Assembly (NCBI GenBank): GCA_038915815.1
Contig: JBCLCL010000002.1
Location: 33,521 to 97,520 of the forward strand
Length of the DNA: 64,000 nucleotides
Origin: Candidatus Limnocylindrales bacterium
GTDB taxonomy: Bacteria; Chloroflexota; Limnocylindria; Limnocylindrales; CSP1-4
Direction: 5' to 3'
The position numbers and the translations under genes were made by a program. This document shows positions 2,771 through 58,469 of the stretch, in pieces; position 1 is the stretch's first letter; each line of letters begins with the position of its first letter. The notes below the pieces were generated by a model. The model was not told where the DNA came from, made no database searches, and saw nothing but the letters and a program-made list of their open reading frames with translations.

Positions 2771-4132
<1,362 letters not shown>

Positions 4133-10059: not shown

Positions 10060-10141
10060 CAGGAGCGATCCGATGAGCGTCCGGCCGGCCTCCAGAGTGG
10101 TTCCGGCGAGCAGGGCTCGCTCGATGATGCGCAGACCGGCC

Positions 10142-10729
10142 TCAGCGCAGCGGGTAGGCGGCCTTGATGCCGTCAGGGATGAACAGGCCGATGAGCATGA
10201 AGCTCGACGGGATCAGGGTGTTGCGGAAGAGGACGGCGAACTGGGTATGGTCGAGACCGCCCCAGAACTCACGCAGGAGTGGGAGTTCCTGGGGGTCCTG
10301 CGGGATGCCGGGGATGCGGAAGAAGGTGTCGAGGATGATCAGCACCATCCCGAAGATGATGGCCGCCTGCAGCAGGCCGAGGAATCCGCCAAGGATCTCG
10401 TCGGCGAACCTCGCCTTCCTGAACAGTTGCTGCGGCTTGTAGTAGGTCTGGACGACGAGGGCAAGCGCGACGGCCGATGCCGAGAAGATCGTCCCGAAGC
10501 CGATCATGTAGCTGTACTGCCTCGGGAACTGCGTCCAGTGGTCGGCCAGGAAACGACCGAACGTATCGAACATGCTCGCCGCAAGCAGGAACGAGAAGAG
10601 GATGGAACCGAGCCCGATCAACCGGCGGATCGTCCCCTGGGCGAAGCCCAGAACGAAGAAACCGATGAAGTACAGCACGATGAGCAGGTCCACGGTCCCG
10701 AACCCGCCCACGAACTCCCCGAGGTCCAC
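10142..10729 (-). CDS. cvpA: CvpA family membrane protein
   Basis: Four predicted TM helices. The N-terminus VDLLIVLYFIGFFVLGFAQGTIRRL is typical of colicin V production protein family members. The chosen GTG at 10729 is preceded by GGAGG at a 7-nt spacing. The longer ORF-track start at 10813 adds a non-membrane Arg/Ser-rich head. Confidence 0.8.
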   Translation of the reverse strand: MDLGEFVGGFGTVDLLIVLYFIGFFVLGFAQGTIRRLIGLGSILFSFLLAASMFDTFGRFLADHWTQFPRQYSYMIGFGTIFSASAVALALVVQTYYKPQQLFRKARFADEILGGFLGLLQAAIIFGMVLIILDTFFRIPGIPQDPQELPLLREFWGGLDHTQFAVLFRNTLIPSSFMLIGLFIPDGIKAAYPLR

Positions 10730-10843: not shown

Positions 10844-13330
10844 TCAGGTTCGGAGGTGTCCATCCACGTTGGCCGCCAGCCCGCGGGTCACGTCGGCGAT
10901 GGCACCGTCCACCTCGCCCTCGCTCAGGGTCCGGTCGTCGGCCAGGAAGGTCAGGCGGAATGCCAGGCTCTTGTGCCCGTCGGTCAGTGGGCGCCCACGG
11001 TAGATATCGAAGAGGGCCACGGATCGCATGAGCTCCCCGCCATGGTTGCGGATGGCCGCCTCCACAGCCGCAGCCCGCACGGGCTCCGCGACGATCACCG
11101 CCAGATCGCGTTCCACCGCGGGGTGGCGGGACGGCGTGACGCTGCGCGGGATGCTGGGTCGGCCACCGGACAGGCCGGCGATCGCGATCTCGGCGACGAC
11201 GACATCCGTCGTCCGGAGTTCGAGCGTCTCGGCGAGCGCCGGATGCAACGCCCCGACCCGACCGGCGAGCTCAGCCCCGGAGGAGACCCGGGCCGCTCGA
11301 CCAGGGTGGAGCCGCGGGTCGTCGATCAGGGCGACATACGATGGTGCCATCAGGCCGAGCCGCCGCGCCAGCAGGTCGATGATGCCCCTCGCGTCATCGA
11401 CGTCGTAGGGTCGCTCGGCGCGATTCCACGATGGGATCTCGGCGGCGCCGGTCAGCGCGAACCCAAGACGCCACCACTCGTGGGTCGAGTCCCCGTCGGC
11501 TGTCGCACCATAGCCCTTGCCGATCTCGAAGATCGCCACATCGGATCTCCCGTGGCGCAGGTTGGTCGAGACCACTTCGAGGAGACTGCCAAGCAGGCTC
11601 TGACGCATGATCGAGTGCTGGCTCGACAACGGGTTGGTGACGGTCACCGGCCGACCGCCTGCCTCCCCTTCCCCGTGGACCGGCGGGTCGTCGGCTGCCC
11701 CGAACCGCTCCGACATCGCGGGCGAAACGAGCGCGAACGTGACCGCCTCGCTCAACCCGGCGCCGGCGAGCGTCTCGCGCACGACGTCGCGCAGGCGCAG
11801 TGGTGAGTGTCGGTAGGCCGGCATCGAGGTGTGCGGCAGGATGTCCGGGATGACGTCATAGCCGCGGACGCGGGCGACTTCCTCGGCGACGTCGGCTTCG
11901 ATGACCAGGTCGCGCCGCCAGGTCGGGATGGTCGCGACCAGGCTCTCCGCGGCGCCGGGGTCCAGGTCGAGCGGCATCGGCGCTGGAGCGATGGCGATCG
12001 TCGTCCCGGCCGGAGCGACCTCGGTCACCACCCCGACCCGCGCCAGCAGGTCGCGCTGCTCGCTCGTCGGGAGATCGACCCCCAGCAACCGGCTGACCCG
12101 GGCGGGCCGGAAGGCCAGCCGTGTCGGCTGTGGCGGGGTCGGATCGGTGTCGACCGTGCCGGCCGAGACACGGCCTCCCGCCCACTCCGCGATGAGACGC
12201 GCCGCCCTGTCGGCCCCGAGCCTCGCCAGCCGGTGTTCCTGGCCCTTCTCGAAGCGCAGGCTCGCCTCCGATCGAAGGGCATAGCGAAAGGCGGTTCGGC
12301 GGATGCTGACTGGGTCGAAGATGGCCGACTCGACGATCACGTTCGCGGTCGCTGCGCTGATCTCCGAAGTCGCTCCACCGATCACCCCGGCGATCGCCAG
12401 CGGCCCGCTCGAGTCGGCGATGAGCAGGGTCTCGGGTTCCAGCTCGCGAGTGACGTGGTCGAGCGTCTCGAGGCGCTCCCCGGCCCTCGCCAGGCGGACG
12501 ACGATCCGTCCGTCATGGACGGCGTTCGCGTCGAAGGTATGGATCGGTTTGCCGAGCTCGAGCATGACGTAGTTGCTGACGTCCACCACATTGCTGACGG
12601 GCCGCTGCCCGGCGGCGATGAGTCGCATCTGGATCCGCTCCGGTGAGGGCGCCACGCGGACGCCGCTGATCCAGCGGCCAACGAATCGTGGGCAGAGAGT
12701 CGGTTCCTGGACGTCCACCCGGAGACGCCGCTCGACCGGGTCGTCCGACTCGGGTGGATCGGTTTCGGGAAAGCGGAGCGGTGCGCCGGTGAAGGCCGAG
12801 ATCTCGCGTGCGAGCCCGATCATGGCGAGTGCATCCCCGCGATTCGGCTTGACGTCCACGTCGAGGACGGTGTCACCATAGAGTTCGGCCAGCTGCGCCC
12901 CGATCCGTGCCTCGGCGGGCAGGATCAGGATCCCATCCGCGTCGACCGTGAGGCGCAGTTCGTCGCCTGAACAGAGCATCCCGTTGCTGACGACGCCCAT
13001 CTTCTCGGTCCGCTCGATCCTCCGGTTGCCGGGCAGGATGGCGCCTGGCAGGGCGACCGGAACGCGCTGCCCGGCGGCGATATTGGTCGCGCCGCAGACG
13101 ATCTCGAGGGGCTCACCGGAACCGAGATTCACCCGGGTCAGCGACAGTCGGTCCGCCCGCGGATGGCGCTCGACCGACAGCAGCTCGCCGACCACCACGT
13201 TGTCCCAGTCGCGGCCCCACGCTTCGACCGACTTGACTTCCATGCCGAGCAGGGTCAGGCGTTCGGCCAGCTGCTCGGGCGTCAGGTCGATGTCGACGTA
13301 CTCGCGCAACCACGAGAGGGGCGCCTTCAC
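10844..13330 (-). CDS. pheT: phenylalanine--tRNA ligase beta subunit
   Basis: VKAPLSWLREYVDIDLTPEQLAERLTLLGMEV is the canonical PheT N-terminus. tRNA-binding, B3/4, B5 and FDX-ACB-like regions follow. The GTG at 13330 overlaps the pheS stop (GTGA). The 13564 ORF-track start would run through pheS. Confidence 0.92.
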   Translation of the reverse strand: MKAPLSWLREYVDIDLTPEQLAERLTLLGMEVKSVEAWGRDWDNVVVGELLSVERHPRADRLSLTRVNLGSGEPLEIVCGATNIAAGQRVPVALPGAILPGNRRIERTEKMGVVSNGMLCSGDELRLTVDADGILILPAEARIGAQLAELYGDTVLDVDVKPNRGDALAMIGLAREISAFTGAPLRFPETDPPESDDPVERRLRVDVQEPTLCPRFVGRWISGVRVAPSPERIQMRLIAAGQRPVSNVVDVSNYVMLELGKPIHTFDANAVHDGRIVVRLARAGERLETLDHVTRELEPETLLIADSSGPLAIAGVIGGATSEISAATANVIVESAIFDPVSIRRTAFRYALRSEASLRFEKGQEHRLARLGADRAARLIAEWAGGRVSAGTVDTDPTPPQPTRLAFRPARVSRLLGVDLPTSEQRDLLARVGVVTEVAPAGTTIAIAPAPMPLDLDPGAAESLVATIPTWRRDLVIEADVAEEVARVRGYDVIPDILPHTSMPAYRHSPLRLRDVVRETLAGAGLSEAVTFALVSPAMSERFGAADDPPVHGEGEAGGRPVTVTNPLSSQHSIMRQSLLGSLLEVVSTNLRHGRSDVAIFEIGKGYGATADGDSTHEWWRLGFALTGAAEIPSWNRAERPYDVDDARGIIDLLARRLGLMAPSYVALIDDPRLHPGRAARVSSGAELAGRVGALHPALAETLELRTTDVVVAEIAIAGLSGGRPSIPRSVTPSRHPAVERDLAVIVAEPVRAAAVEAAIRNHGGELMRSVALFDIYRGRPLTDGHKSLAFRLTFLADDRTLSEGEVDGAIADVTRGLAANVDGHLRT

Positions 13331-17930: not shown

Positions 17931-18007
17931 TGGTGGGCGACACTGGACTCGAACCAGTGACCTCTTGCATGTCAAGCAAGTGCTCTAACCAGCTGAGCTA
18001 GCCGCCC
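17931..18007 (-). tRNA. tRNA-Val (anticodon GAC), CCA encoded
   Basis: A hand-folded cloverleaf: GGGCGGC-TA-GCTC-AGCTGGTTA-GAGC-A-CTTGC-TTGACAT-GCAAG-AGGTC-ACTGG-TTCGAGT-CCAGT-GTCGCCC-A-CCA. Confidence 0.93.
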
Positions 18008-18115
18008 GATGTCGCCGGTTCCCCGTTCCGTTGGCCATGGATCCGTTGGCTCGCGAGTGTTCCACATCCGCGCCGAAGCCACGCCCGCGGGATCAAGGAG
18101 CCAGCGGCGAGCGGC

Positions 18116-18144
18116 ATCATACCCCGAGGCGCCCGGAGCGACAA
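18116..18144 (-). promoter_or_regulatory. sigma-70-like promoter candidate upstream of tRNA-Val/thrS
   Basis: The minus strand reads TTGTCG-(17 nt)-TATGAT, about 100 nt upstream of the mature tRNA-Val 5' end. Confidence 0.35.
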
Positions 18145-18202
18145 CGGCGCCCGACGGCGTGGTAGGGACATCCCAACGCCCGTACTGATCGGGCCGGAAT
18201 GA

Positions 18203-18344
18203 GCTGAGCGCCATGCGTCCGCCACGAGCGTGATGCTGGAGCGCATCATCCACGAGACATTTACGCTCGGTGGCCGCCGAGTCTCGACAGGACTCGGCCA
18301 GCGCCACGCTCATCTGTCCCGACATTGATGCTGTCCAGGATCAC
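18203..18344 (-). repeat. conserved intergenic element, copy A (candidate structured ncRNA)
   Basis: It aligns to 42878-43020 (plus strand) with 113 of 142 identities by hand count and one 1-nt indel. The flanks are unrelated. It contains the TGATGC-GCTCCA-GCATCA hairpin and other shared stems. Details are in the findings. Confidence 0.75.
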
Positions 18345-18450
18345 CCGGCTCACCGGGTCGGGCTCAGGGGCCCTGGCCCTCAGCGGCCTCACCCGGCGCG
18401 GACGATCAGATGCTTCCGACGGCACGGGACCGCGGGCGAAGCCGGGCGAA

Positions 18451-18470
18451 GCCGGGCGGATCCGCCCGGC
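18451..18470 (-). terminator. GC-rich palindrome just downstream of the acyltransferase stop
   Basis: GCCGGGCGGATCCGCCCGGC is a perfect 20-bp palindrome lying 17 nt after the stop at 18487. A U-tract is absent (TTCGCCC follows). Confidence 0.4.
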
Positions 18471-18486
18471 GTCGCCCCTGGCCCGG

Positions 18487-20613
18487 TCAGTGCGGGATCG
18501 GCAGCGCCGCGTCGAGCAGACCGGCCAGGGAGGCGGCGAAGGTGGCGGTCAGGTGGTGGTCGTCGCGCTGGACGATCATCTCCCCGACCACCGCCTGACA
18601 CGGATCGCCGGGACAGATCGCGTCGGACAGGTCGATCACGGTGGCAGCGGCAGCCTCGGCGGCGATCCGCTCGCGCACGAGTGGCCGGCGACCGAACGCC
18701 TCGATCCGCGCTGTCGCACAGCGGGTGATGTCGGCCAGGTTCTGCGACAGGCAGACCGGCACGTCAACGCGTGACGCCGGGCTATCCCCGACGATCGCGA
18801 TCGCGCCCGGGATCTGGTTCAACAGGCGGGCCATCGCCTCGCCCTGCCTCGTGGGATCGGCGTCGCCCTTGACCTGTGTGGGGAGCCAGCGGTCCGAGGA
18901 AACGATGGTCAGATCGGGCCGCTCGTCGATCAGGCGCTGCACGACGAGCGGCCGCCAGGCCTCGCACTCGGCGTACTGACGCTTGAGGATCGGCGAATAG
19001 ATCGGCAGGTCCACGAACACACATGACGCCTTGGTGAAGACCAGCAGACGCCAGCCGTGAGCCTGCGCGACCGCTTCGACCGCCGGGAACCAGTGCGCCG
19101 CATGGGAATCGCCGACGAGGGCCACGGTGAACGCACCGTTCGGATCGCCGTAGACGCAGTCGGGCGGCTTGCTTCCGCGGAGGCTCATGAAGCATCCGTC
19201 CGGGATGATTCGTTCGCGATCCGAGCGAGCCGTCGCCAGCGCTGGGCGGATCCCGGCGGGTAGCGGCCACGGATCCGGCAGGACCGCCGGATTGGTGGGA
19301 GCGCTCGGGAACAGGGCCACTGGCGAGGCGGTCGGCGCAGCGCTCGGACTGGCACCCGGTTCCGGGGTCGAATGAGCCTGCGTGGCGGTCGGCGCCGGTG
19401 TCGCGGAGGCGCCATCCAGCGACGGAGGCGTGGATCCCACGGGCGTCTGCGCGGCGCTCGCGGGCGCCGGTGATCCGGCAGGGGCACCCGATGGCACGGC
19501 TCCGACCGCCGCGACCCCGACCGCGGCGACCCGGCCGAGGCTGTAGTCGCCGATCCCGATGGCCATGACGGCCACCGCGGTGGCCGTGGTCAGCGCTGTG
19601 GCCAGCACGAGGCGCGGGCGGCGGATCCAGAACTGGCCACGTCTGAACGGTTCCTCGATCAGCCGCCAGCTGATGAAGGCGACCAGCACGGACGCCGCAC
19701 CGAGTGCACATCGAACCGCCAGCGGCAACGCCTCGCCGCTCGCCAGCACCGGGAGGACGAGGATCGGCCAGTGCCACAGGTAAAGCGAATACGAGATGCG
19801 CCCGATGAAGCGGACCGGTGCCAAGGTCAGGAGGGCCTGGACCGGCCCGCCGTGGCCGCCGCCGACGATCAACGCAGCAGCGCCCAGCGTGGGCAACAGG
19901 GCGGCGCTGCCCGGATATGGCGTCGCAAGGTCGATCAGCAGGAACCCCGCCAGGACGAGGCCGACGCCGAACCAGCCGACCGCGACGAGCACGAGACGCG
20001 GAACGCGGACGAACCACCCGGCTGCCACCGCCAGCAGTCCGCCGAGCGCGAGTTCCCAGAGCCGGCTCGGCAGCGAGTAGAAGGCCCACGGCGCGAAGGC
20101 GTCGGTCAGCCAGACGGCGAAGCCGAACGAGCCGGCGGCAAGCGCGCCCATCGTGAGCGCGCGACTCCAGCGAGCCTTGAGCGCGCCGAGAGCGACGATC
20201 ACAAGTGCCGGCCAGACCAGGTAGAACTGTTCCTCGACACCCAGCGACCAGAGGTGACGGAACGGCGAGGGATCGACATCGGCGAAGTAGTCGGTCGACT
20301 CCAGTGCGAAGCGCATGTTCCCGAGTGACAGCGCGGCCGCCGCACCGTCCTGGGCGATCGACGACATCCGGAGCGGCGCGATGGTGAGGGCAGCGACGAC
20401 CATCGTGACCGCGATCGTCGCCAGGACAGCGGGCAGGATCCGGCGCATCCGCCGCGAGTAGAAATGGCGCAGGTCGATCCGACCCGTCTGCTCGTACTCT
20501 CGGAGCAGCAGGCCCGTGATCAGGAAGCCGGAGATCACGAAGAAGATGTCGACGCCGCTGAATCCACCGCCCAGGCTCGGCAGGCCGACGTGGTACCAGA
20601 GGACCGCGAGCAC
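18487..20613 (-). CDS. acyltransferase family 3 membrane protein with C-terminal SGNH hydrolase-like domain (OafA/YrhL type)
   Basis: GVDIFFVISGFLITGLLL, multiple TM helices, SYSLYLWHWP, a Pro/Ala/Ser linker, then an SGNH-like VALVGDSHAAHW. The first canonical start is the GTG at 20613. Conserved EGLRAVAV lies upstream without a canonical start (see findings). Confidence 0.85.
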   Translation of the reverse strand: MLAVLWYHVGLPSLGGGFSGVDIFFVISGFLITGLLLREYEQTGRIDLRHFYSRRMRRILPAVLATIAVTMVVAALTIAPLRMSSIAQDGAAAALSLGNMRFALESTDYFADVDPSPFRHLWSLGVEEQFYLVWPALVIVALGALKARWSRALTMGALAAGSFGFAVWLTDAFAPWAFYSLPSRLWELALGGLLAVAAGWFVRVPRLVLVAVGWFGVGLVLAGFLLIDLATPYPGSAALLPTLGAAALIVGGGHGGPVQALLTLAPVRFIGRISYSLYLWHWPILVLPVLASGEALPLAVRCALGAASVLVAFISWRLIEEPFRRGQFWIRRPRLVLATALTTATAVAVMAIGIGDYSLGRVAAVGVAAVGAVPSGAPAGSPAPASAAQTPVGSTPPSLDGASATPAPTATQAHSTPEPGASPSAAPTASPVALFPSAPTNPAVLPDPWPLPAGIRPALATARSDRERIIPDGCFMSLRGSKPPDCVYGDPNGAFTVALVGDSHAAHWFPAVEAVAQAHGWRLLVFTKASCVFVDLPIYSPILKRQYAECEAWRPLVVQRLIDERPDLTIVSSDRWLPTQVKGDADPTRQGEAMARLLNQIPGAIAIVGDSPASRVDVPVCLSQNLADITRCATARIEAFGRRPLVRERIAAEAAAATVIDLSDAICPGDPCQAVVGEMIVQRDDHHLTATFAASLAGLLDAALPIPH

Positions 20614-41608: not shown

Positions 41609-42802
41609 TCAGCCGTCGTTGCCAAGCAGCGCGCGCGCGATGACGAGCCGCTGGATCTGCTGGGTCCCTTCGTAGATCTGGGTGATCTTGGCGTCGCGCA
41701 TCATGCGCTCGACCGGGAAGTCGTCGATGTAGCCATAGCCGCCCAGGACCTGGACGGCGTCCGTGGTGACCCGCATCGCCGCGTCCCCGGCCACGAGTTT
41801 ACACATCGCCGACCAACGAGCGGCGTCGGGCGAGCCGGCATCGATCTCGACGCAGGCCTTGTAGAGCAGCTGGCGGGCCGCTTCGGTGGCGGCATCCATG
41901 TCGGCCAGCATCGCCCCGATCAACTGGAAGTCGCCGATCCGCTGACCGAACTGGCGTCGCTCGGCCGCATAGCGCGTCGCGACCTCGAGGGCGCCCTGGG
42001 CGATCCCGACGGCCTGGGCGGCGATCCCGGGGCGACTGCGCTCGAAGGTTCGCATGGCGATCGCGAACCCGTCGCCCTCCACGCCGACCAGGTTGGCCGC
42101 CGGAACACGGACAGCGTCGAAGGCGAGCTCGGCGGTCGGGCTCCCGCGGATCCCCATCTTGTGCTCGAGGCGCGAGACGGAGAAGCCGGCTGCGGGGACT
42201 TCGACCATGAAACACGACATCCGTCGGTGACGAGGCGCGTCAGGGTCGGTGACGGCGAAGACCGTGATCAGATCGGCCACCGAGCCGTGGGTGATGAACC
42301 GCTTCGACCCACTGATGACGTAGTCGTCGCCGTCGCGCACGGCGCGAGTGCGGCCCGCCGCGGCGTCGGAGCCGGCCTCCGCCTCGGTCAGCGCGAATGC
42401 GATGAGGAACTCCCCGGACGCCAGCCTCGGGATCCAGCGGGCCTGCTGCTCGGGCGTGCCCGCCTGCAGGAGTGGCAAGGCGCCCAACGCGTGGACCGCG
42501 AGGATCAGGCCGGTCGTGGCACACGCTCGGCTCAGCTGCTCCACCGCCAGGCAGACCGAGAGCAGGTCTCCGCCCAGGCCGCCGTGCTCGACCGGGAATG
42601 GCAGGGCCAGGATGTCCTGGGCAGCCAGCAGCTGGCGCAGATCCTCGGGGAATTCGGCGGTACGGTCGATCTCCGCGGCGCGCGGCGCCACGCGCTCGTC
42701 GGCAACCACGCGGACGGCGTCGCGCAGGAGTCGCTGCTCCTCCGTCAACCGATAGGGGCCGTGGGTCGAGCTCGAGGCGGTCACCGCGGCCGATCGTAGC
42801 AC
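41609..42802 (-). CDS. acyl-CoA dehydrogenase
   Basis: LTEEQRLLRDAVR, FALTEAEAGSDAA, GSKRFITHG, QFGQRIGDFQLI and YEGTQQIQRLVIAR. The start is GTG at 42802 or GTG at 42784. Confidence 0.9.
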   Translation of the reverse strand: MLRSAAVTASSSTHGPYRLTEEQRLLRDAVRVVADERVAPRAAEIDRTAEFPEDLRQLLAAQDILALPFPVEHGGLGGDLLSVCLAVEQLSRACATTGLILAVHALGALPLLQAGTPEQQARWIPRLASGEFLIAFALTEAEAGSDAAAGRTRAVRDGDDYVISGSKRFITHGSVADLITVFAVTDPDAPRHRRMSCFMVEVPAAGFSVSRLEHKMGIRGSPTAELAFDAVRVPAANLVGVEGDGFAIAMRTFERSRPGIAAQAVGIAQGALEVATRYAAERRQFGQRIGDFQLIGAMLADMDAATEAARQLLYKACVEIDAGSPDAARWSAMCKLVAGDAAMRVTTDAVQVLGGYGYIDDFPVERMMRDAKITQIYEGTQQIQRLVIARALLGNDG

Positions 42803-42877
42803 CCGGCCGGGCCGAACCCTTGAGCGAGCATTCCGTGCGTCGTGGTCACGGCCGGCGGTTTCGATCCACTGACGCGT

Positions 42878-43020
42878 GTGATCCGTGCCGGCATCACGGT
42901 CGAGACAGATGAGCGTGACGCAGGCCGAGTCCTGTCGAAACTCGACGGCAGCCGTGCGTGGCTGGCTATTGAATGATGCGCTCCAGCATCAGGCCGCCGA
43001 CGGGCGGATGGACGCTCAGC
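42878..43020 (+). repeat. conserved intergenic element, copy B (candidate structured ncRNA)
   Basis: It is homologous to 18203-18344 (minus strand). It lies in the divergent spacer between the acyl-CoA dehydrogenase start (42802) and a small zinc-ribbon gene (43163). Details are in the findings. Confidence 0.75.
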
Positions 43021-43162
43021 CCCGACCCGCGGGACGGACGTTGCGACAGGTGCGTGCGGGGGCATGGTCCATCTTGCCCTTGGCCGGACCCCGCGCGTAC
43101 CCTGTTCGCAGCCGGCAGCCGCCGCTCCGAGGGCCGCGGCTCAAGCCAGGCGAGGTGCCGCC

Positions 43163-43384
43163 ATGGATCAGACGCAGCAACTCCTGGCGATGACGATCGC
43201 AGCTGGCGTCGGCATCCTTGCGACGCTCGTGATCCTGCGCAGGCAGCGGCGGGCCCAGCAACCGCCGCCCGAGTCGAGGTTCGCGGCCTCGACCGAGGGC
43301 GAGAAACTCTGCCCCGAATGCGGGATGGGGAGTCTCTGGACGGACGACCACTGCATCTCGTGCGGGGCGAAACTTCCGGGCTGA
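43163..43384 (+). CDS. small membrane-anchored zinc-ribbon protein (73 aa)
   Basis: The ATG at 43163 has GAGGTG 6 nt upstream. It encodes a TM helix (LLAMTIAAGVGILATLVIL), then RRQRR, then CPECG-(12 aa)-CISCG. It occupies otherwise empty space between convergent and divergent neighbours. Confidence 0.55.
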   Translation: MDQTQQLLAMTIAAGVGILATLVILRRQRRAQQPPPESRFAASTEGEKLCPECGMGSLWTDDHCISCGAKLPG

Positions 43385-48779: not shown

Positions 48780-49169
48780 TCACTCGTCCTCGAGGGTCCT
48801 CGCCTGGTCCCACCAGCCCTCCATGGTGAGATCGGAGGGCGGATCCATCTTGAGCTCGATCGCGGCGGTCCGGACCCTCTCCCGGAATGCCTCGAGCGAC
48901 AGGTCCAGGATCTGGCGCAGACCTTCGATCTCGGCCTGGATGAGGAGCTGGTGTTCGGCCGGACCGAAGCTCGCCAGGTTCAGCATCAGCGCCTCGTCGC
49001 GCCACATCAGGACGTCGTTCGTGGTGGCGTCCAGCTGGTCGGCCAGGGTCTGGCGGCGGGTCGGCGTCTCCGACACCTCCAACAGCAGGCCGGTGGTGAA
49101 GATACCCTGGTGGTCGAGCCGGTCCAGGTGCGCCGGCTCGATACGCGTCAGCTCATTGATCGGTGGCAC
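48780..49169 (-). CDS. DUF4332-like (helix-hairpin-helix repeat) protein
   Basis: 129 aa. LTRIEPAHLDRLDHQGIFTTGLLLE and a second FGPAEHQLLIQAEIEGLRQIL unit resemble the two HhH-like repeats of DUF4332. Confidence 0.55.
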   Translation of the reverse strand: MPPINELTRIEPAHLDRLDHQGIFTTGLLLEVSETPTRRQTLADQLDATTNDVLMWRDEALMLNLASFGPAEHQLLIQAEIEGLRQILDLSLEAFRERVRTAAIELKMDPPSDLTMEGWWDQARTLEDE

Positions 49170-49448
49170 GGGTCAGGCGAGGCCTCCATCGAGGTGGGTG
49201 GGTCGCGATGCCGCCATTATCGGGTCTCGGGGCGACCGTCGTCAGCGGCCGCAGGTGCGGGTACGCACAGATCCCCACCTGGCTCGACCAGGCGGTGATG
49301 CAGCGGGTGCATCATCTGGGTCGGTTGCACGCTCAGCGACGCGCCGTCTCCGCAAACAATGGGAGGCGCCACGCACGAATATGGTGGTGACGATGCCCAC
49401 GCGCATCAGCACCTTCGGAATTCGCCCATGTCGCGCTCCATCGAGCCT

Positions 49449-50945
49449 TCACCCGTCGACGACCTGCTCGGCCGCTGCCGCTCGCAGCAATTCCCAGGCA
49501 CGCTCGACGTGGCGCGCTTCCGTTCGAAGGTTGCCGATCGCGATCCGGATCGTGAACCGGCCGGCGAGACGGGTATGCGACAGGAAGACCTCGCCCGTTC
49601 GATTGACCGCGTCCATGATCGCGGCGTTGGCCTCGTCGAGACGCTCGGCGACGGCCGGCTCGTCGGCCCGGACGGCCAGCGCCGCCGGCCGCCAGCGCAA
49701 GCAGACGGTCGAGAATGGGACGGGCGCCAGCAGCTCCCAGTCCGGGTCGGCTTCGATCGTCGCAGCCAGGGCGGCCGCCAGTCCCAGGTGGTGTTCGATC
49801 CGGCGTCGAAGCCCGTCGAGTCCGAACCAGCGCAGCTGGACCCACAACTTGAGCGCCCGAAAGCGCCGGCCCAGTTGCGGCGTGTACTCGGTGTAGTCGC
49901 GGCCCGGCGGCGCGCGATCGAGCGTCCGCAGGTACTCCGGGACCAGGCTGAAGGCCGCTCGCAGCTCGCCCATCCGGCGGGTCAGCAGCAATGACGCATC
50001 GAGCGGCGTGAACAGCCACTTGTGCGGGTTGATCACGATCGAGTCGGCGCGTTCCCAGCCGTCAAACGCGGCCCGCCGATCCGGCAGCATCGCCACGACC
50101 CCCGCATACGCCGCATCGACGTGCAGCCAGAGCCCCTCTCGTGCGGAGATCTCCGCGATCGGCGCGATAGGGTCGACCGAAGTTGACGAGGTGGTCCCGA
50201 TCGTCGCCACGATCGCGATCGGCCGCAGGCCCGCGGCCCGATCGGCCGTGATCGCCTCGGCCAGGGTGCCGGGAAGCATCTCGTAGCGCTGGTTGGTGGG
50301 GATCCGGACGAGCGAGGCGCGTCCCAGGCCCAGGGTCATGCACGCCTTCTCGACCGAGCTGTGCGCCTCGGCCGAGGCGTAGACCCGCAGGCCGCTCCCA
50401 AGGTCGTCGCGCCCCGCCAGCCCTCGCGCGGCAGCGTCGGTGCCAGCGGCCTCGCGTGCGGCGGCCAGGGCGATCAGGGTCGAGGTCGATGCCGTGTCGG
50501 TCAGCAGCCCATCGAACGCCTCCGGAAGGCCGAGCGCCTGGCGCAGCCAGTCGACGACCACCTCCTCCAGTTCCGTGCCGATCGGCGAGGCCCGCCAGAG
50601 CATCGGGTTCTGGCCCAGCGTCGCCACAAGCATCTCCCCGAGGATCCCGGGGCCGGATGCCGTCGTCGGGAAATAGGCGAAGAAACCCGGGTGCTGCCAG
50701 TGCGTGGCGTTGGGCTCGATGAGCCGGGCGTAGTCCGCCAGGATCGCCTCGATCGACTCGGGGTCCTCCGGTGCGAACGCCGGAAAGAGCGGTCGCAGCG
50801 AACCTGGCTTGACCTGGGGAAGGACCGGCCGGGTCTCGACGGTTTCCAGGTAGTTCGCCATGATGTCCACGACTGCGTGGGCCGCCGCCCGGAAGGCGTC
50901 GGGATGCATGTCCAGCAAGGGCGCGCTGTCGTTGGGTCGGGTCAC
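49449..50945 (-). CDS. pyridoxal-dependent (group II, aromatic-L-amino-acid type) decarboxylase
   Basis: 498 aa. HWQHPGFFAYFP, LHVDAAYAG and INPHKWLFTPLDASLL (the PLP-binding Lys). Confidence 0.88.
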   Translation of the reverse strand: MTRPNDSAPLLDMHPDAFRAAAHAVVDIMANYLETVETRPVLPQVKPGSLRPLFPAFAPEDPESIEAILADYARLIEPNATHWQHPGFFAYFPTTASGPGILGEMLVATLGQNPMLWRASPIGTELEEVVVDWLRQALGLPEAFDGLLTDTASTSTLIALAAAREAAGTDAAARGLAGRDDLGSGLRVYASAEAHSSVEKACMTLGLGRASLVRIPTNQRYEMLPGTLAEAITADRAAGLRPIAIVATIGTTSSTSVDPIAPIAEISAREGLWLHVDAAYAGVVAMLPDRRAAFDGWERADSIVINPHKWLFTPLDASLLLTRRMGELRAAFSLVPEYLRTLDRAPPGRDYTEYTPQLGRRFRALKLWVQLRWFGLDGLRRRIEHHLGLAAALAATIEADPDWELLAPVPFSTVCLRWRPAALAVRADEPAVAERLDEANAAIMDAVNRTGEVFLSHTRLAGRFTIRIAIGNLRTEARHVERAWELLRAAAAEQVVDG

Positions 50946-51396
50946 ACGGCCAGTGTATGGCCGCAGCCAGTGAGCCAGACGGTAGGGGCGATCAGGCAGC
51001 TGACATCACTCGGGCGACCGAGAGCAACCCACGGCCCGACGTCCTTGGAAACCGCCTGAGCACACGATCCCGCTCGTGTACTGTCGGCCTGTCAGGAGGG
51101 CCGGACATGACGATCCACGATCAGCGCCCTGGACCGCCTCACCGGAGCGCGTTGTTTGCTGGCCTGGTGGTTTCAGCCGGTGCCCCTCGACCAGATGGTG
51201 ACGATTGTCCGCTATCTCACCAGCCATCCCGAAGACCGCCCGAGGATCGGCCGTGCGGACCCTGACGAGTGGCTCCAGACGCGCCAGACCGCGGGCCAGG
51301 GAGACGTTTGACGGCGCGTCGAGGTCGAACGCCGACGGCCGCGGCTGGAGGTCGCCGACGATGGTTAGAGCGAGGCTCCCCCTGTTGGGAGGACTC

Positions 51397-54053: not shown

Positions 54054-56051
54054 TCAGATCTCGGCAGCTACCTTGAGGCCCTCCAGCACCGCTTCTTCGA
54101 CGGTCCGCGGCGCGAGGCAGTCGCCGATCCCGTGGACCTCCCCGTCGAAGGCACCCGGGGTCTCCAGCTCGACCAGCAACCCGTCCACCGGATCGTGGCC
54201 CTGGGCGAGGACCAGGCCGGCCGCGCCCTCCACGATGACCGGCTCGCCGGTCAGGACGTGCTGGAAGAAGACCGCCGAACCGTCATAGCCGAAGAGTCGC
54301 ACGAGTGGGATGATCTGGACGCCGGCCTTCGTCACCGCGCCGGTCATCGCATCCCGAACGTACTGCTGGATCCGCTGGCCCGGCATGTAGCCGTCCACCC
54401 CCAGGGTCACCTTGCGCCCACGCTCGGCCAGGAGCTGGGCGAGGCCAAGGCCGATCCAGTCGCAACGCCAGTCGGCGACGACCAGCCGCCCGTCCGGGAT
54501 CTCCGCCCCCCGGAGCACCTGCCAGGCGTCCAGGACGACAGGGTCGCCTGACAGCTCCATCGGTGGTCGGCGCGGACCGGCCCCGGTGGCGACGATGACG
54601 ACCTCGGGACGCTCCCGCCGGATGAGCTCCAGATCGACGGTCGTGCCGACGACGACCCGAACGCCGGCCCGCTCGGCCTCGCCGGCGAGGTTCGTCACCA
54701 CTCCGCCGAACTCCGCTCGACCCGGCAGTCGCTCGGCGAGCAGGACCTGGCCGCCGACCCGGCGGGCCGCTTCGTAGAGGGTGACTCGATGGCCGCGCTC
54801 GGCAGCGACCGTGGCCGCCTTGAGCCCGCCCGGGCCGCCACCGACCACCATGACATCGCGGGCGCGACTCGCAGGTGCCAGCCGTCCGAACTGCAGTTCC
54901 CGGCCGCTCTCGGGGTACTGGATGCAGGAGATCGGGTAGCCGGCGTGGAAGTGGCCGATGCAGGCCTGGTTGCAGCCCACACAGGCCCGGATCTCGTCGG
55001 TACGGCCGTCAGCCGCTTTGCGGGGCATGAGCGGATCGCTGATGAGGGCGCGGGTCATCGCGCAGGCGTCCGCCTGCCCGAGCTCCAGGACCCGCTCGGC
55101 CTCCTGCGGCTGGTTGATCCGTCCGGCGACGATGACCGGGACGGAGACGACCGCCTTGGCTCGGGCGGCGAGGGGCGCAGTGTAGGCGTTGGGCACCGTC
55201 ATCGGCGGGACGATGTGATCCGAGCCGGCAAGCGTTGCCGACGTCCCGGCGACGACGCTGACATAGTCGATCAGGCCGTCGGCGTCGAGCACGGCCAGGG
55301 CGGGCAGGACGTCGTCCGGGGTCAACCCCTCGGGGGTGATCTCGTCGATCGAGACCCGCAGACCAACGACCGGCTCGCGACCGACCTCGGCGCGGATCGC
55401 GGCGATCGTCTCGCGCAGGAAGCGCAGCCGGTTCTCCGGGCTGCCGCCGTAGCGGTCGGTCCGCAGGTTCACCCGCGGATTGAGGAACTGGGCGGGAAGG
55501 TAGCCGTGGCTCGCCACCACCTCCACGCCATCGAGTCCGGCGTCGCACAGACGCCGCGCAGCCGAAGCGTAGCCGGCCCGGATCTCCTCGATCAGCGGGA
55601 TCGGCATGGCACGGGGCATGACGTGGAACCGCTCGTTCGGCACGGCCGACGGGGCGAGCGCGACCGGCAGCGACCCGTCCTGCGACTCCATCAGCTCCCG
55701 GCCGTCGTGGAAGATCTGGCCGACGATGGCGCTCCCATGCGCGTGGACGGCCTCCGCCAGACGACGGAAGCCCGGGATGCACTCGTCCTCGGTCGCCATG
55801 AGGATGTGCGAGGTGTAGCGGGCGCTCTCGTGGACGCCGGAGACCTGGACCACGATCAGGCCGACCCCACCGGCCGCACGCGCCGCCTGATAGGCGATGA
55901 GCTGGTCGGTGACCAAGCCGTCGATCGCCATGACCGTGTCGTGTCCCGACGAGACGATCCGGTTGCGCAGGGTCACGCTCCCGATCCGGAGCGGCTCGAA
56001 GAGCCGCGGGAAGTGTTGGGCGGGCGTGGTCGCGGCGGACATGTCGGTCAT
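54054..56051 (-). CDS. NADH:flavin oxidoreductase / 2,4-dienoyl-CoA reductase-like (OYE TIM barrel plus 4Fe-4S plus FAD/NAD(P) domain)
   Basis: LRNRIVSSGHDT, GVEVVASHGYLPAQFL, CVGCNQACIG and VVGGGPGGLKAA. Confidence 0.88.
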   Translation of the reverse strand: MTDMSAATTPAQHFPRLFEPLRIGSVTLRNRIVSSGHDTVMAIDGLVTDQLIAYQAARAAGGVGLIVVQVSGVHESARYTSHILMATEDECIPGFRRLAEAVHAHGSAIVGQIFHDGRELMESQDGSLPVALAPSAVPNERFHVMPRAMPIPLIEEIRAGYASAARRLCDAGLDGVEVVASHGYLPAQFLNPRVNLRTDRYGGSPENRLRFLRETIAAIRAEVGREPVVGLRVSIDEITPEGLTPDDVLPALAVLDADGLIDYVSVVAGTSATLAGSDHIVPPMTVPNAYTAPLAARAKAVVSVPVIVAGRINQPQEAERVLELGQADACAMTRALISDPLMPRKAADGRTDEIRACVGCNQACIGHFHAGYPISCIQYPESGRELQFGRLAPASRARDVMVVGGGPGGLKAATVAAERGHRVTLYEAARRVGGQVLLAERLPGRAEFGGVVTNLAGEAERAGVRVVVGTTVDLELIRRERPEVVIVATGAGPRRPPMELSGDPVVLDAWQVLRGAEIPDGRLVVADWRCDWIGLGLAQLLAERGRKVTLGVDGYMPGQRIQQYVRDAMTGAVTKAGVQIIPLVRLFGYDGSAVFFQHVLTGEPVIVEGAAGLVLAQGHDPVDGLLVELETPGAFDGEVHGIGDCLAPRTVEEAVLEGLKVAAEI

Positions 56052-56094
56052 CGTCGGAGGCTACCAGCGCGAGCAGGAGCGCGTCGACCTGCCG

Positions 56095-56994
56095 TTAGTA
56101 GCTCTCGCAGCCGATGCCGTCATGGTTGCCGTCGAAGCCATGGATATCGATACCCACGACGGTGACCCGATGGGCGATGTCGGCGCAGTCGAGATCGTAT
56201 GAAACGATGGGGACGCAGTAGCCGGCGTAGTTCGGGTCACACGCCCCTCCGGCGGTGGGCGTCGGCGTCGGTGTCGCAGTCGTCGTGGCTGTGGGCGTCG
56301 GGGAGGCCGAGGTCGCTGCCGGGATCACGGCCACGGTCGCCGTCACCTCCGCGCAGCCTGTCAAGATTCGCTTGAGAGCGGCGCGCTCGAGTGTATCCAC
56401 GCTGAGGCTCCAGCGTACCTTGACCACCACCCACTCCCTCGCGTAGGTACACCGGAAGCTCGTCAGCGTCGGCAGCCACTGTCCCGGATCCTTGTCGCTC
56501 TTCGAACGGTTCGAGGCCGCCGAGACGGCGCGGAGTGAGCGCCAGTCACCCAGGTCGTTGGCGTACGACTTGCGGCGTGCCGAGGTCCAGTCCCAGGCAC
56601 CCGAATCCCAGGCTTCCTTGAGCGCGACGACGTGGTCGATGTCGAACCCAGATGCAGTGGTGGTGGTCAGCCCGTCATACGCCGAGCGCCACGACCCGGT
56701 GACGGAACAGCCCGTCCCCACCTTCGCGGTCGTCCGCGATTCCGCGATCAGGACTTCGCTGCGGGTGCTGCAGCCGTCCTTGTCGGCGTCGATCCAGTGG
56801 ATGAACAGGGCCCGGTCGTAGCCGGCCGGGTGCTCGGGTATCGTCGCAAGACGGGCCAGGAGCTTGAGCCCGGTGCCGCTGACGGTCGCGGCGGCGTTCG
56901 CCGGTGCGCCGTTCGAAGCGGCAAGTACCGCCGCTGCGAGGAGCACGACCAGGCGGGCGGCGATGCGTTGGCGCGTCCCTGGTGTCCCGATCAT
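56095..56994 (-). CDS. secreted DUF1524/HNH-type nuclease with C-terminal Excalibur calcium-binding domain
   Basis: The ATG at 56994 gives a signal-like RIAARLVVLLAAAVLAAS. DIDHVVALKEAWDSGAWDW...YANDL...LRAVSAASNRSKSDKDPGQWLP is the DUF1524 nuclease core. A Thr/Pro linker follows. YDLDCADI...DIHGFDGNHDGIGCE is Excalibur-like. Confidence 0.8.
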   Translation of the reverse strand: MIGTPGTRQRIAARLVVLLAAAVLAASNGAPANAAATVSGTGLKLLARLATIPEHPAGYDRALFIHWIDADKDGCSTRSEVLIAESRTTAKVGTGCSVTGSWRSAYDGLTTTTASGFDIDHVVALKEAWDSGAWDWTSARRKSYANDLGDWRSLRAVSAASNRSKSDKDPGQWLPTLTSFRCTYAREWVVVKVRWSLSVDTLERAALKRILTGCAEVTATVAVIPAATSASPTPTATTTATPTPTPTAGGACDPNYAGYCVPIVSYDLDCADIAHRVTVVGIDIHGFDGNHDGIGCESY

Positions 56995-57174
56995 GAGTCT
57001 CGTCGCATCACTCGCTTCAGTCCTCGGTGCGCGAACCAGCCGACCCACCGACGTGACGCATCATGCGCCGACCGGTCAAGACGGCTTCGGCCACGGCGAA
57101 CCGGGGTCGCGATCGACTGAGACCCTGTGGCCGAAATACGCGGGACAGCCATGCACCTGCCGGACTGAGGCTGC

Positions 57175-57804
57175 TCAGATGTGCTGGTTGAGCAGGGTGA
57201 GGAGGGCGACGACCATCGGGTGATGATGGCCACGCATCGAGGTAGCCGCCGCGGCGGCATAGACAAGATCGGCCGGCCGGGGCTTCAGCGCCAGGAAGAA
57301 GGGCAGTCCGTAACGGACGGCGACCCAGTTGACCCACAGGCGGGCGATCCGTCCGTTGCCACTCGCAAGAGGATGGATCCGCACCCACTCGCCGTGGGCG
57401 ATCGCCGCGATCTCGAGGATCGCGTAGAGATCGGTGGCAGTGGTGGGCTGCGCACCGACCGGGATGACGCCGTCCATGCGGGCGACAACCGCTTTGAGGC
57501 CGGCCTCAAAGCCGGCGAGCGCAGCCGGGACATCGGCCGACGGCATTCCGGGTGCTGAGCCGACCGAGACCTCGTAGCCGAACAGCTCGGGATAGATCGG
57601 GTCGCTGTCGCGGATCTCACCAGCGTAGTAGGGCACCGGCAGCGGAATGCCGCGGTAGGTCTCTCGGTGCCACTCCTGGGCCATCGCCACGGTCAGCGGA
57701 AGCCGGAGAGCAGCGTCGCCGACGACCTGGCCGCCGATCCTCTTGAGGTTGTCGATGATCCGGGCGTCAGAGCCCGGCGGATCCTCGTTCCACGGGATCG
57801 GCAC
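57175..57804 (-). CDS. Fic/Fido domain protein with a variant active-site motif
   Basis: 209 aa. The motif HPLASGNGRIARL compares with the canonical HPFx(D/E)GNGRxxR. An upstream helical Fido core follows (LYAILEIAAIAHGEWVRIHP). Confidence 0.8.
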   Translation of the reverse strand: MPIPWNEDPPGSDARIIDNLKRIGGQVVGDAALRLPLTVAMAQEWHRETYRGIPLPVPYYAGEIRDSDPIYPELFGYEVSVGSAPGMPSADVPAALAGFEAGLKAVVARMDGVIPVGAQPTTATDLYAILEIAAIAHGEWVRIHPLASGNGRIARLWVNWVAVRYGLPFFLALKPRPADLVYAAAAATSMRGHHHPMVVALLTLLNQHI

Positions 57805-57807
57805 GGG

Positions 57808-58149
57808 TCAGCGCACACCCTCGGCAGCAGCGGCAAAGGTGCGAGCGATGTCGTGGGGGTCCTCGCGGGGCGCGACCATACGAGCCTGCAAAGGATCGTG
57901 ATAGGCCACCTCGGCCTCGGCAAAGCGGGCCACGTCGCGGGCCGACTCTCCCCGGTAGTCAGCCAGCCGCGCGAGCGTGTGTGACAGGTCCTCCTGGAGG
58001 GCCAGCGCGAGATCGCCGATCTCGTTCTTGATCATCGTCTCTGCGAGGCGGTTCATGGATACGTCGAGACGGCCGGCCAGCAGCGCCAGGAGGTCGTGCG
58101 TCGCCTGATCCTCGAACCGGATGGTGAACGATCGACGATGATTGCTCAT
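57808..58149 (-). CDS. ribbon-helix-helix (CopG/Arc-like) protein, putative antitoxin or regulator partner of Fic
   Basis: The ATG at 58149 gives MSNHRRSFTIRFEDQATHDLLALLAGRLDVSMNRLAETMIKNEI, a beta-strand, helix, helix pattern. It ends 3 nt before the Fic start. Confidence 0.65.
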   Translation of the reverse strand: MSNHRRSFTIRFEDQATHDLLALLAGRLDVSMNRLAETMIKNEIGDLALALQEDLSHTLARLADYRGESARDVARFAEAEVAYHDPLQARMVAPREDPHDIARTFAAAAEGVR

Positions 58150-58166
58150 GACCTGATTCTGGCGCC

Positions 58167-58197
58167 TGTGACGGCACACGTCAAGTTTGCCGTCACA
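58167..58197. promoter_or_regulatory. perfect 10-bp inverted repeat upstream of the RHH gene (candidate operator)
   Basis: TGTGACGGCA-(11 nt)-TGCCGTCACA lies 18-48 nt upstream of the RHH ATG. On the minus strand the spacer contains TTGACG. Confidence 0.5.
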
Positions 58198-58392
58198 TCA
58201 GGTCGACTCGACGCGCAGCTCGGTCCTCCCGGGCGTGAGGATCGGCACCGACGGCGAGGCTTTCAGTCAAGCCCCTGCCGGCCGAGACCAGAAGGGCTCA
58301 ACTCCTGGCCTGCCGAAATGCCGCTTGGCAGGTCGAATGCTCGGACAGCGAGTTTGTTCCGACACTCGGAGTGCCATTTCCTGAGGGGAATA

Positions 58393-58469
58393 TGGTCGGG
58401 GCGGCCGGATTTGAACCGACGACCACCAGTCCCCCAGACTGGTGCGCTACCAGACTGCGCCACGCCCCG
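58393..58469 (-). tRNA. tRNA-Pro (anticodon GGG), CCA encoded
   Basis: Hand fold: CGGGGCG-TG-GCGC-AGTCTGGTA-GCGC-A-CCAGT-CTGGGGG-ACTGG-TGGTC-GTCGG-TTCAAAT-CCGGC-CGCCCCG-A-CCA. Confidence 0.92.

Follow-up and report, generated by a model that had tools for sequence, protein, structure and literature searches.

A repeated element in two intergenic spacers

The window analyzed here, a 64-kb stretch of DNA in its entirety, carries a non-coding sequence element in two intergenic spacers. Copy B is located between an acyl-CoA dehydrogenase (ACAD)/etfBA operon and a gene for a 73-aa membrane zinc-ribbon protein (43163–43384). Copy A is located between the post-stop hairpin of an AT3-SGNH acyltransferase gene and the promoter-like boxes of tRNA-Val/thrS. 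The two copies are on opposite chromosomal strands and occupy non-orthologous sites. The features of the element and its flanks are as follows.

42855–43050 (+): copy B, full A-like extent; core 42878–43020
18163–18372 (−): copy A, full extent; core 18203–18344, long imperfect palindrome ∼18211–18370
42879–42896 (+): palindrome P1 of copy B, TGATCC-GTGCCG-GCATCA, with a conserved C·C mismatch in the stem
42974–42991 (+): palindrome P2 of copy B, TGATGC-GCTCCA-GCATCA, identical in copy A
18326–18343 (−): palindrome P1 of copy A, TGATCC-TGGACA-GCATCA
18231–18248 (−): palindrome P2 of copy A, TGATGC-GCTCCA-GCATCA
42899–42949 (+): central block of copy B, GTCGAGACAGATGAGCGTGACGCAGGCCGAGTCCTGTCGAAACTCGACGGC, ∼90% identical to copy A; holds the symmetry center (CTGTCGA loop)
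43013–43020 (+): block CGCTCAGC, shared by both copies; TGAGCG at 42911–42916 is its inverted counterpart
43074–43103 (+): promoter-like TTGCCC-N18-TACCCT of the zinc-ribbon gene; flank outside the repeat, conserved in element-free relatives
18116–18144 (−): promoter-like TTGTCG-N17-TATGAT upstream of tRNA-Val (17934–18007); flank outside the repeat, where homology to relatives resumes
49290–49415 (−): probable copy C, strongly diverged (12081–12221 in the sister-strain sequence L001); two palindromes and a collinear GCGTGGCGC block

The original prediction that positions 42878–43020 of the plus strand hold the same element as positions 18203–18344 of the minus strand is borne out in both sequence and coordinates, with the copies ∼80% identical. 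A blastn comparison aligns 42875–43020 (+) with 18203–18344 (−) at 79.6%–79.9% identity over 144–147 nt (E = 1.8e-24), and this pair is the sole strong match within the 64-kb window. With a profile built from A and B, nhmmer extends copy B to 42850–43053 (E = 4.8e-61). Similarity between the copies continues for ∼23 nt on the 5′ side beyond P1 and, more weakly, for ∼30 nt beyond the 3′ end first reported, where the weaker match noticed earlier (ACGGGCGTTGGGA / ACGGACGTTGCGA; copy B 43034–43046) is also found. Conservation is uneven along the element: A 35-nt core has only two changes, and ∼20 nt are invariant at P2. Since A/B similarity runs past both palindromes, the ends of the element are not sharp, and no sharp termini can be defined from the copies. 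Likewise, neither copy is bordered by direct repeats that could represent a target-site duplication.

Both copies lie upstream of, and outside, recognizable promoters. In each case, a −35-like box follows ∼25–30 nt after the end of the copy and ∼94–98 nt from the center of P2. The boxes at 43074–43103 were inferred from conservation and were not called by a consensus scan. On the other side of copy B, the start of the ACAD gene had been placed at 42802, 76 bp from the element. This position requires correction: Sister assemblies call the start at 42784, which gives a protein of 391 aa, as long as the majority of its homologs, and leaves copy B 94 bp away. The GTG start is preceded by a −10-like hexamer, TACGAT, which ends ∼7 nt upstream of it (42784–42800, − strand) and is shared by the window and two relatives (L147 and L149), and the arrangement of these sequences suggests that the ACAD gene is leaderless. 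Complementarity between P1 of copy B and the start region of the zinc-ribbon gene was also considered and was judged to be due to chance, because the likely promoter is downstream of the element and the complementarity has no counterpart in copy A.

Homologs of the flanking proteins carry the names Chloroflexota and Candidatus Limnocylindrales. Several NCBI metagenome-assembled genomes (MAGs) of the same species (GCA_0389151xx–0389163xx) carry A and B at 98%–100% identity. Every sister MAG seen has A and B, as well as copy C described below, and no presence/absence polymorphism was observed within the species. At the B locus, within-species variation amounts to three events in the 143-nt core versus six in the 235 nt of surrounding spacer. 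This shows that copy B is under no extra constraint relative to its own spacer within the species.

Two short palindromes as apparent arms of a longer one

Each copy carries two palindromes of the form TGATSC-N6-GCATCA, with centers 95 bp apart in A and B, exactly as originally described. The accompanying observations were reproduced as well: P1 has a different spacer in each copy (TGGACA in A, GTGCCG in B), and P2 and its 5′ flank are invariant over ∼20 nt. The half-sites TGAT(C/G)C and GCATCA are invariant in both copies, while the P1 spacer differs at five of six positions. Within the window, this pattern occurs at four sites only, all of them in A and B, versus an expectation of 0.03 (SD 0.17), and none of 100 shuffled sequences reached four. 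The palindromes therefore occur well above chance frequency; occurrence at the level expected from composition had been named at the outset as evidence that would count against the element.

Copy A is one long imperfect palindrome of ∼160 bp. When aligned locally with its own reverse complement it scores 86, compared with 43 ± 10 for shuffled sequences, and it matches the A+B profile in reverse orientation with an E-value of 2.8e-7 (nhmmer). Its folding also beats that of shuffles on both strands (z = −2.7 and −3.9). Copy B has no significant self-complementarity when compared with its own reverse complement, and its folding is near that of shuffles (z = −0.97); it has lost most of the long-palindrome symmetry. 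P1 matches the reverse complement of P2 at 16 of 19 positions in A and at 11 of 19 in B. P1 and P2 appear to be mirror partners, the two arms of one long palindrome, and this relationship would by itself explain the 95-bp spacing. On this reading, there is no need to regard them as separate operators placed in phase.

The isolated 18-bp hairpins are weak, with predicted energies of −0.4 to −6.2 kcal/mol as DNA, and P1 of copy A barely folds. Because of this weakness, conservation of the half-sites appears to be sequence-specific rather than purely structural. Pairing in the longer arms was assessed by comparing the copies. One double change between A and B (A-U to U-A, alignment columns 66/99) keeps one arm paired. 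RNAalifold applied to A and B gives one compensatory pair versus ∼20 broken pairs, a covariation term of +3.3, and seven one-sided changes that keep pairing. When copy C is added to the alignment, apparent covariation is equal on the two strands (12 versus 11 pairs), as a DNA palindrome would give and a strand-specific RNA would not.

A probable third, diverged copy and related palindromes

Only two copies had been recognized in the window, and this count probably needs to be raised to three. A spacer flanked by a DUF4332 gene (48780–49172, − strand) and a gene for a 519-aa protein (49449–51005, − strand) contains two palindromes of the same type with centers 93.5 bp apart. One of these, at 49391–49408, reads CGATGC-CCACGC-GCATCA on the plus strand; its first base is T in sister strain L001, which gives an exact TGATGC half-site. 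The other, at 49296–49314, reads TGATGC-AGCGGGT-GCATCA and has a spacer of 7 nt. Local alignment of copy C with A and B gives z values of 3.2–4.5 in three of four comparisons, with the comparison between B and the plus strand of C not significant. On the basis of these sequence similarities, positions 49290–49415 are a probable third copy, which would be old and strongly diverged.

Together, A, B, and C contain six palindromes of the type TGATSC-N6/7-GSATCA, all of which are intergenic. Apart from the first base of CGATGC noted above, their half-sites do not vary, while the spacers differ in sequence and, in one case, in length. A relaxed search of the window (spacer of 5–8 nt, at most one mismatch) finds 11 palindromes versus 1.3 expected. 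Those with one mismatch at 10125–10215, 11380, and 23147 appear to lie in coding sequence and were judged to be codon-driven chance occurrences. Outside the species, a single palindrome of this type (GGTGATCC-GCTACC-GCATCAG; 3201–3218) is present in relative L147, whose ACAD protein is 90% identical. This palindrome is located in a convergent spacer of ∼125 bp downstream from the small zinc-ribbon gene; the corresponding spacer is 23 bp in the window species. The presence of a lone palindrome in a different spacer suggests movement or turnover of this motif family in the lineage. In a further ∼20 kb of flanking sequence from the same species, and in the corresponding loci of relatives, nhmmer detected no additional copy.

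Orthologous spacers of relatives lack the element

The original prediction proposed to examine whether orthologous intergenic regions retain the element, and we compared both loci with those of the nearest relatives available, whose flanking proteins are 87%–90% identical. The element is absent at both loci, while the genes and promoter-like boxes are kept. At the B locus of L149 (ACAD 87% identical), the spacer is only 131 bp and retains the ACAD start region and the boxes of the small gene, with the element missing. L147 and L148 (ACAD 90% identical) have a 428-bp spacer of unrelated sequence that lacks the element, and the locus in L150 is rearranged and also lacks it. At the A locus, L153 (ThrS 90% identical) carries a gene for a 186-aa protein (2961–3521, no Pfam match) in the place of copy A, between the acyltransferase gene and tRNA-Val, which indicates that this spacer is evolutionarily fluid. 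L154 (ThrS 87% identical) is without the element at this locus. In both L153 and L154, homology to the window resumes near 18148, at the tRNA-Val promoter.

With flanking genes and boxes conserved but the element missing, neither a structured cis-regulatory RNA nor a paired-operator module that is conserved at these genes is supported. These comparisons indicate that the element was added recently, in this lineage, to spacer DNA that is itself variable, and that it is not a conserved regulatory feature of its neighbors. The same sequence data argue against a regulon that would link tRNA/thrS with β-oxidation, and against a new conserved regulatory RNA. Of the original proposal of a structured RNA or operator module, the repeated non-coding element with paired palindromes stands, and the conserved regulatory role does not, given that relatives lack the element.

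Coding capacity, known RNAs, and database searches

A small open reading frame or pseudogene was considered, because one frame is open in both copies. The differences between A and B are distributed 10/12/7 over the codon positions when the frame is taken from the first aligned base (the other two frames give cyclic permutations of these values), and this distribution has no codon-position bias. The open frame of the element has no match in Pfam, and a concatenated six-frame translation of A and B has zero matches at E ≤ 1 among 5.8 billion proteins. We therefore rejected a coding function.

In a search of Rfam 15, only tRNAs pass the gathering score; the best other models at E ≤ 10 score 11–17 bits, far below their cut-offs. 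A hammerhead-like core (CAGAUGAG...CGAAAC) was examined and rejected. The first motif of the hammerhead core consensus is CUGAUGA. The element has CAGAUGA at this position, GAAAC is replaced by GAGAC in copy A and by AUCAC in L003, and no Rfam hammerhead model matches at E ≤ 10. Known operator consensus sequences, compared as generally described (CRP/GlxR, Fur, LexA, HAIR, and CIRCE), do not appear to fit the palindromes in spacing or sequence.

Searches for further members were extended to larger collections. No member was found in plasmids or phages, and a scan of viral contigs returned chance matches only. The exact 18-mer pattern of P2 has at least 114 matches in GTDB genomes, and among the matches listed all are chance or coding occurrences. 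Among the matches listed, Dehalococcoidia/SAR202 MAGs contribute an excess of the 18-mer TGATGCGCTCCAGCATCA (L038, L057, L062, L068, and L072; L022, L040, and L042). This excess arises because two conserved families of coding sequences encode ...LMLERI..., and it is unrelated to the element. A search of JGI metagenomes with the core pattern gave 28 matches, most of them seed-only, with no true member among them; the one extended match inspected (L141) lies, by eye, in an apparent HD-domain coding sequence. A literature search for repeats in Limnocylindria returned nothing relevant.

Genes that might mobilize the element were also sought. The genes called in ∼84 kb of sequence from this species include no transposase, no RAYT, and no other candidate for a mobilizing gene. 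The only insertion sequence seen is in strain GCA_038915905.1 (L161 2758–5622), where a DDE_Tnp_1 transposase and an extra His_biosynth gene are inserted upstream of the his operon and truncate a Trp_repressor-like gene. This insertion sequence has no nhmmer similarity to the element.

A dispersed palindromic repeat and its alternatives

The explanation that we favor, to which we give somewhat less than an even chance, is that the element is a lineage-specific, non-coding, dispersed palindromic repeat of ∼160–200 bp resembling REPIN, MITE, or ERIC sequences. Such a repeat is probably present in low-to-moderate copy number and is probably selfish or neutral. The element would consist of one long imperfect palindrome in which two short palindromes are placed symmetrically ∼95 bp apart around a conserved core. 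Small non-autonomous or selfish repeats of this type invade intergenic DNA that lacks promoters and decay afterwards. A transposase or recombinase encoded elsewhere and acting in trans could recognize the half-sites together with a single-stranded DNA hairpin formed by the two arms. Any effect on the neighboring genes (ACAD/etfBA, the zinc-ribbon gene, or tRNA-Val/thrS) would be incidental. Both mobility and a role of the half-sites as recognition sites for a trans-acting enzyme are inferred from the features of the copies. The repeat hypothesis is supported by the unrelated genomic contexts, the presence of the element in both orientations, copies at different stages of decay, and empty sites in relatives. 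On the opposite side, conservation is highest in the central block and P2, a pattern that might point to function instead of neutral decay. The fixation of A, B, and C in sister MAGs, the lack of significant self-complementarity in copy B, the weakness of the short hairpins, and the failure to find sharp termini, target-site duplications, a mobilizing gene, or further copies also weigh against it.

Several features of the palindromes and their positions could be explained if the element were a composite protein-binding module in which a dimeric factor binds two 18-bp operators, loops the ∼95 bp between them, and controls the promoters immediately downstream. We consider this unlikely. Invariant half-sites that flank a P1 spacer changed at five of six positions, a spacing of exactly 95 bp (∼9 turns) in both A and B, the similar distances of both copies from a −35-like box, and isolated hairpins too weak for structure alone to account for conservation are all expected of such a module. 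However, orthologous promoters in relatives function without it, and in one strain of the same species tRNA-Val is cut off by an integrase island from both copy A and the promoter-like boxes. Copy C has a 93.5-bp spacing and a 7-nt spacer in one palindrome, and the longer spacer would be poorly tolerated by a rigid dimeric operator. Moreover, the three contexts have no common functional theme, promoter regions elsewhere in the 64 kb contain no further exact half-site pairs, none of the copies has a linked regulator gene, and the 95-bp spacing would be a trivial consequence of a two-armed palindrome. An RNA function has a lower probability still. The copies could be paralogous small RNA (sRNA) genes, or a species-specific structured RNA module, with the forward strand (plus for B, minus for A) transcribed and folded into several helices. 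The original assessment that RNA and DNA readings are inseparable from two copies was correct. Blocks conserved beyond what hairpin stems need (the 35-nt core and the invariant nucleotides at P2), the one-sided changes that keep pairing in the RNAalifold model, and the shared orientation of A and B relative to the next downstream gene would fit such an RNA. So would several changes in the predicted helices that produce G-U pairs in the forward strand and not in its complement, such as GUCGAG/CUCGAC in B versus GUCGGG/CUCGGC in A. The pattern of broken pairs in the A+B model, the equal covariation on both strands once C is included, and the folding of copy B no better than shuffles are evidence against it, as are the lack of promoter-like or terminator-like signals in or around either copy, the lack of an Rfam match, and the lack of conservation in relatives.

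An explanation that involves neither function nor mobility is also improbable in our judgment. Here, A and B would result from passive segmental duplication or from a gene-conversion tract of intergenic DNA. This would be consistent with only two clear copies, both fixed in all sister MAGs, with no target-site duplications, no transposase, and no members found outside the species. It does not readily account for the probable third copy or for the lone palindrome in L147, and the strong palindromic architecture of A and the uneven conservation are unexpected of randomly duplicated spacer. Returning to the dispersed palindromic repeat, a more ambitious version can be proposed, although its chances appear slim. 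The element might be the first described REPIN-like or hairpin-transposon family of Limnocylindria-type Chloroflexota, or else a species-specific family of structured sRNAs. In this proposal, a dedicated putative protein would recognize the stems and the ∼50-nt core, and the copies, placed preferentially just upstream of promoters, could modulate them.

Comparison with known repeats

Repetitive extragenic palindromes (REPs) and their inverted doublets (REPINs) are found mainly in Proteobacteria and are mobilized by RAYT transposases of the Y1/HUH type. REPIN families are recognized by a single-copy RAYT (Y1_Tnp) gene flanked by REPs and by tens to hundreds of copies per genome. The element is alike in having short imperfect intergenic palindromes with conserved stems and variable loops, diverged copies, and a lone palindrome (in L147). 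It is also alike in that two palindromes are placed symmetrically ∼100 bp apart; copy A, though not copy B, could fold over its full length into one long hairpin. The element differs from REPs and REPINs in that it has no GTAG-type 5′ tetranucleotide (its palindromes are preceded by GG or GT before TGATSC), no RAYT is seen in ∼84 kb, and its copy number may be low (two clear copies and one diverged copy in 64 kb). In addition, the host is a Limnocylindria-like member of the Chloroflexota, and the central block of ∼50 nt is more conserved than the usual inter-REP spacer. By analogy, the element seems most like a REPIN. Because the GTAG-type 5′ motif is absent, we label it REPIN/MITE-like and do not classify it as a member.

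Other classes share some of these characteristics; the features used for comparison are those generally known for REPINs, for MITE, ERIC, and Correia repeats, for PATEs, and for looping operators. Like MITE/ERIC/Correia-type repeats, the element is ∼130–200 bp long, non-coding, imperfectly palindromic, intergenic near promoters, and absent from orthologous sites of related species. Filled and empty sites, as expected of MITEs, are observed between species at both loci (relatives with flanking proteins 87%–90% identical). In contrast to these repeats, neither sharp-ended terminal inverted repeats nor a target-site duplication, parent insertion sequence, or within-species insertion polymorphism was found. 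The PATEs derived from IS200/IS605 are similar in carrying two subterminal hairpins in direct order, a conserved mismatched stem base, and flanking sequence on both sides, with no terminal inverted repeats or target-site duplications. However, the stems of the element are only 6 bp and weak, there is no TnpA or TnpB gene nearby, and no Rfam match of the HEARO or ω-RNA type is found. Paired looping operators (lac, gal, and deo) provide a further parallel, with two dyad 18-bp sites separated by integral helical turns upstream of promoters. In contrast to these operators, the sites of the element are not kept with the genes in relatives, the spacer length varies in copy C, no regulator is linked, and the sites are inside a larger repeat.

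To our knowledge, dispersed palindromic repeats are hardly catalogued in uncultured soil Chloroflexota and are essentially undescribed in the phylum. A defined family would aid the masking and annotation of MAGs and would help to explain why contigs break and why spacers vary in length. Should a cognate enzyme of the HUH or DDE type come to light, the family would point to a new mobilization system.

Variable DNA at neighboring tRNA genes

Directly after the stop codon of the acyltransferase gene, positions 18424–18487 hold a strong GC-rich hairpin with 17-nt arms that are 94% complementary, together with two copies of a tandem 10-bp repeat, CGGGCGAAGCCG. This hairpin is probably the terminator of the acyltransferase gene, and it is located just upstream of copy A.

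In sister strain GCA_038915655.1, a tyrosine-integrase island abuts the 5′ end of tRNA-Val (L152 2773–3826 compared with window 18013–18116; L170 4385–4755). The island is inserted between the −10 box of the tRNA-Val promoter (18116) and the tRNA itself (18013). Islands that target tRNA genes are normally found 3′ of the gene, and a 5′-side island is unusual. The possibility that the element serves as a recombinase att site was rejected, since the island junction is outside the element, between the −10 box and tRNA-Val.

A second tRNA gene is also associated with variable DNA. In one strain, an island with integrase, HTH, and Prim-Pol/AAA_25 genes (L155 15150–20711) follows tRNA-Pro(GGG) on its downstream side. 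Other strains (L156 and L157), and probably the window as well (∼56000–58400), have Fic and GmrSD_C genes at this site. The region downstream from tRNA-Pro(GGG) is a hotspot for variable tRNA-linked islands.
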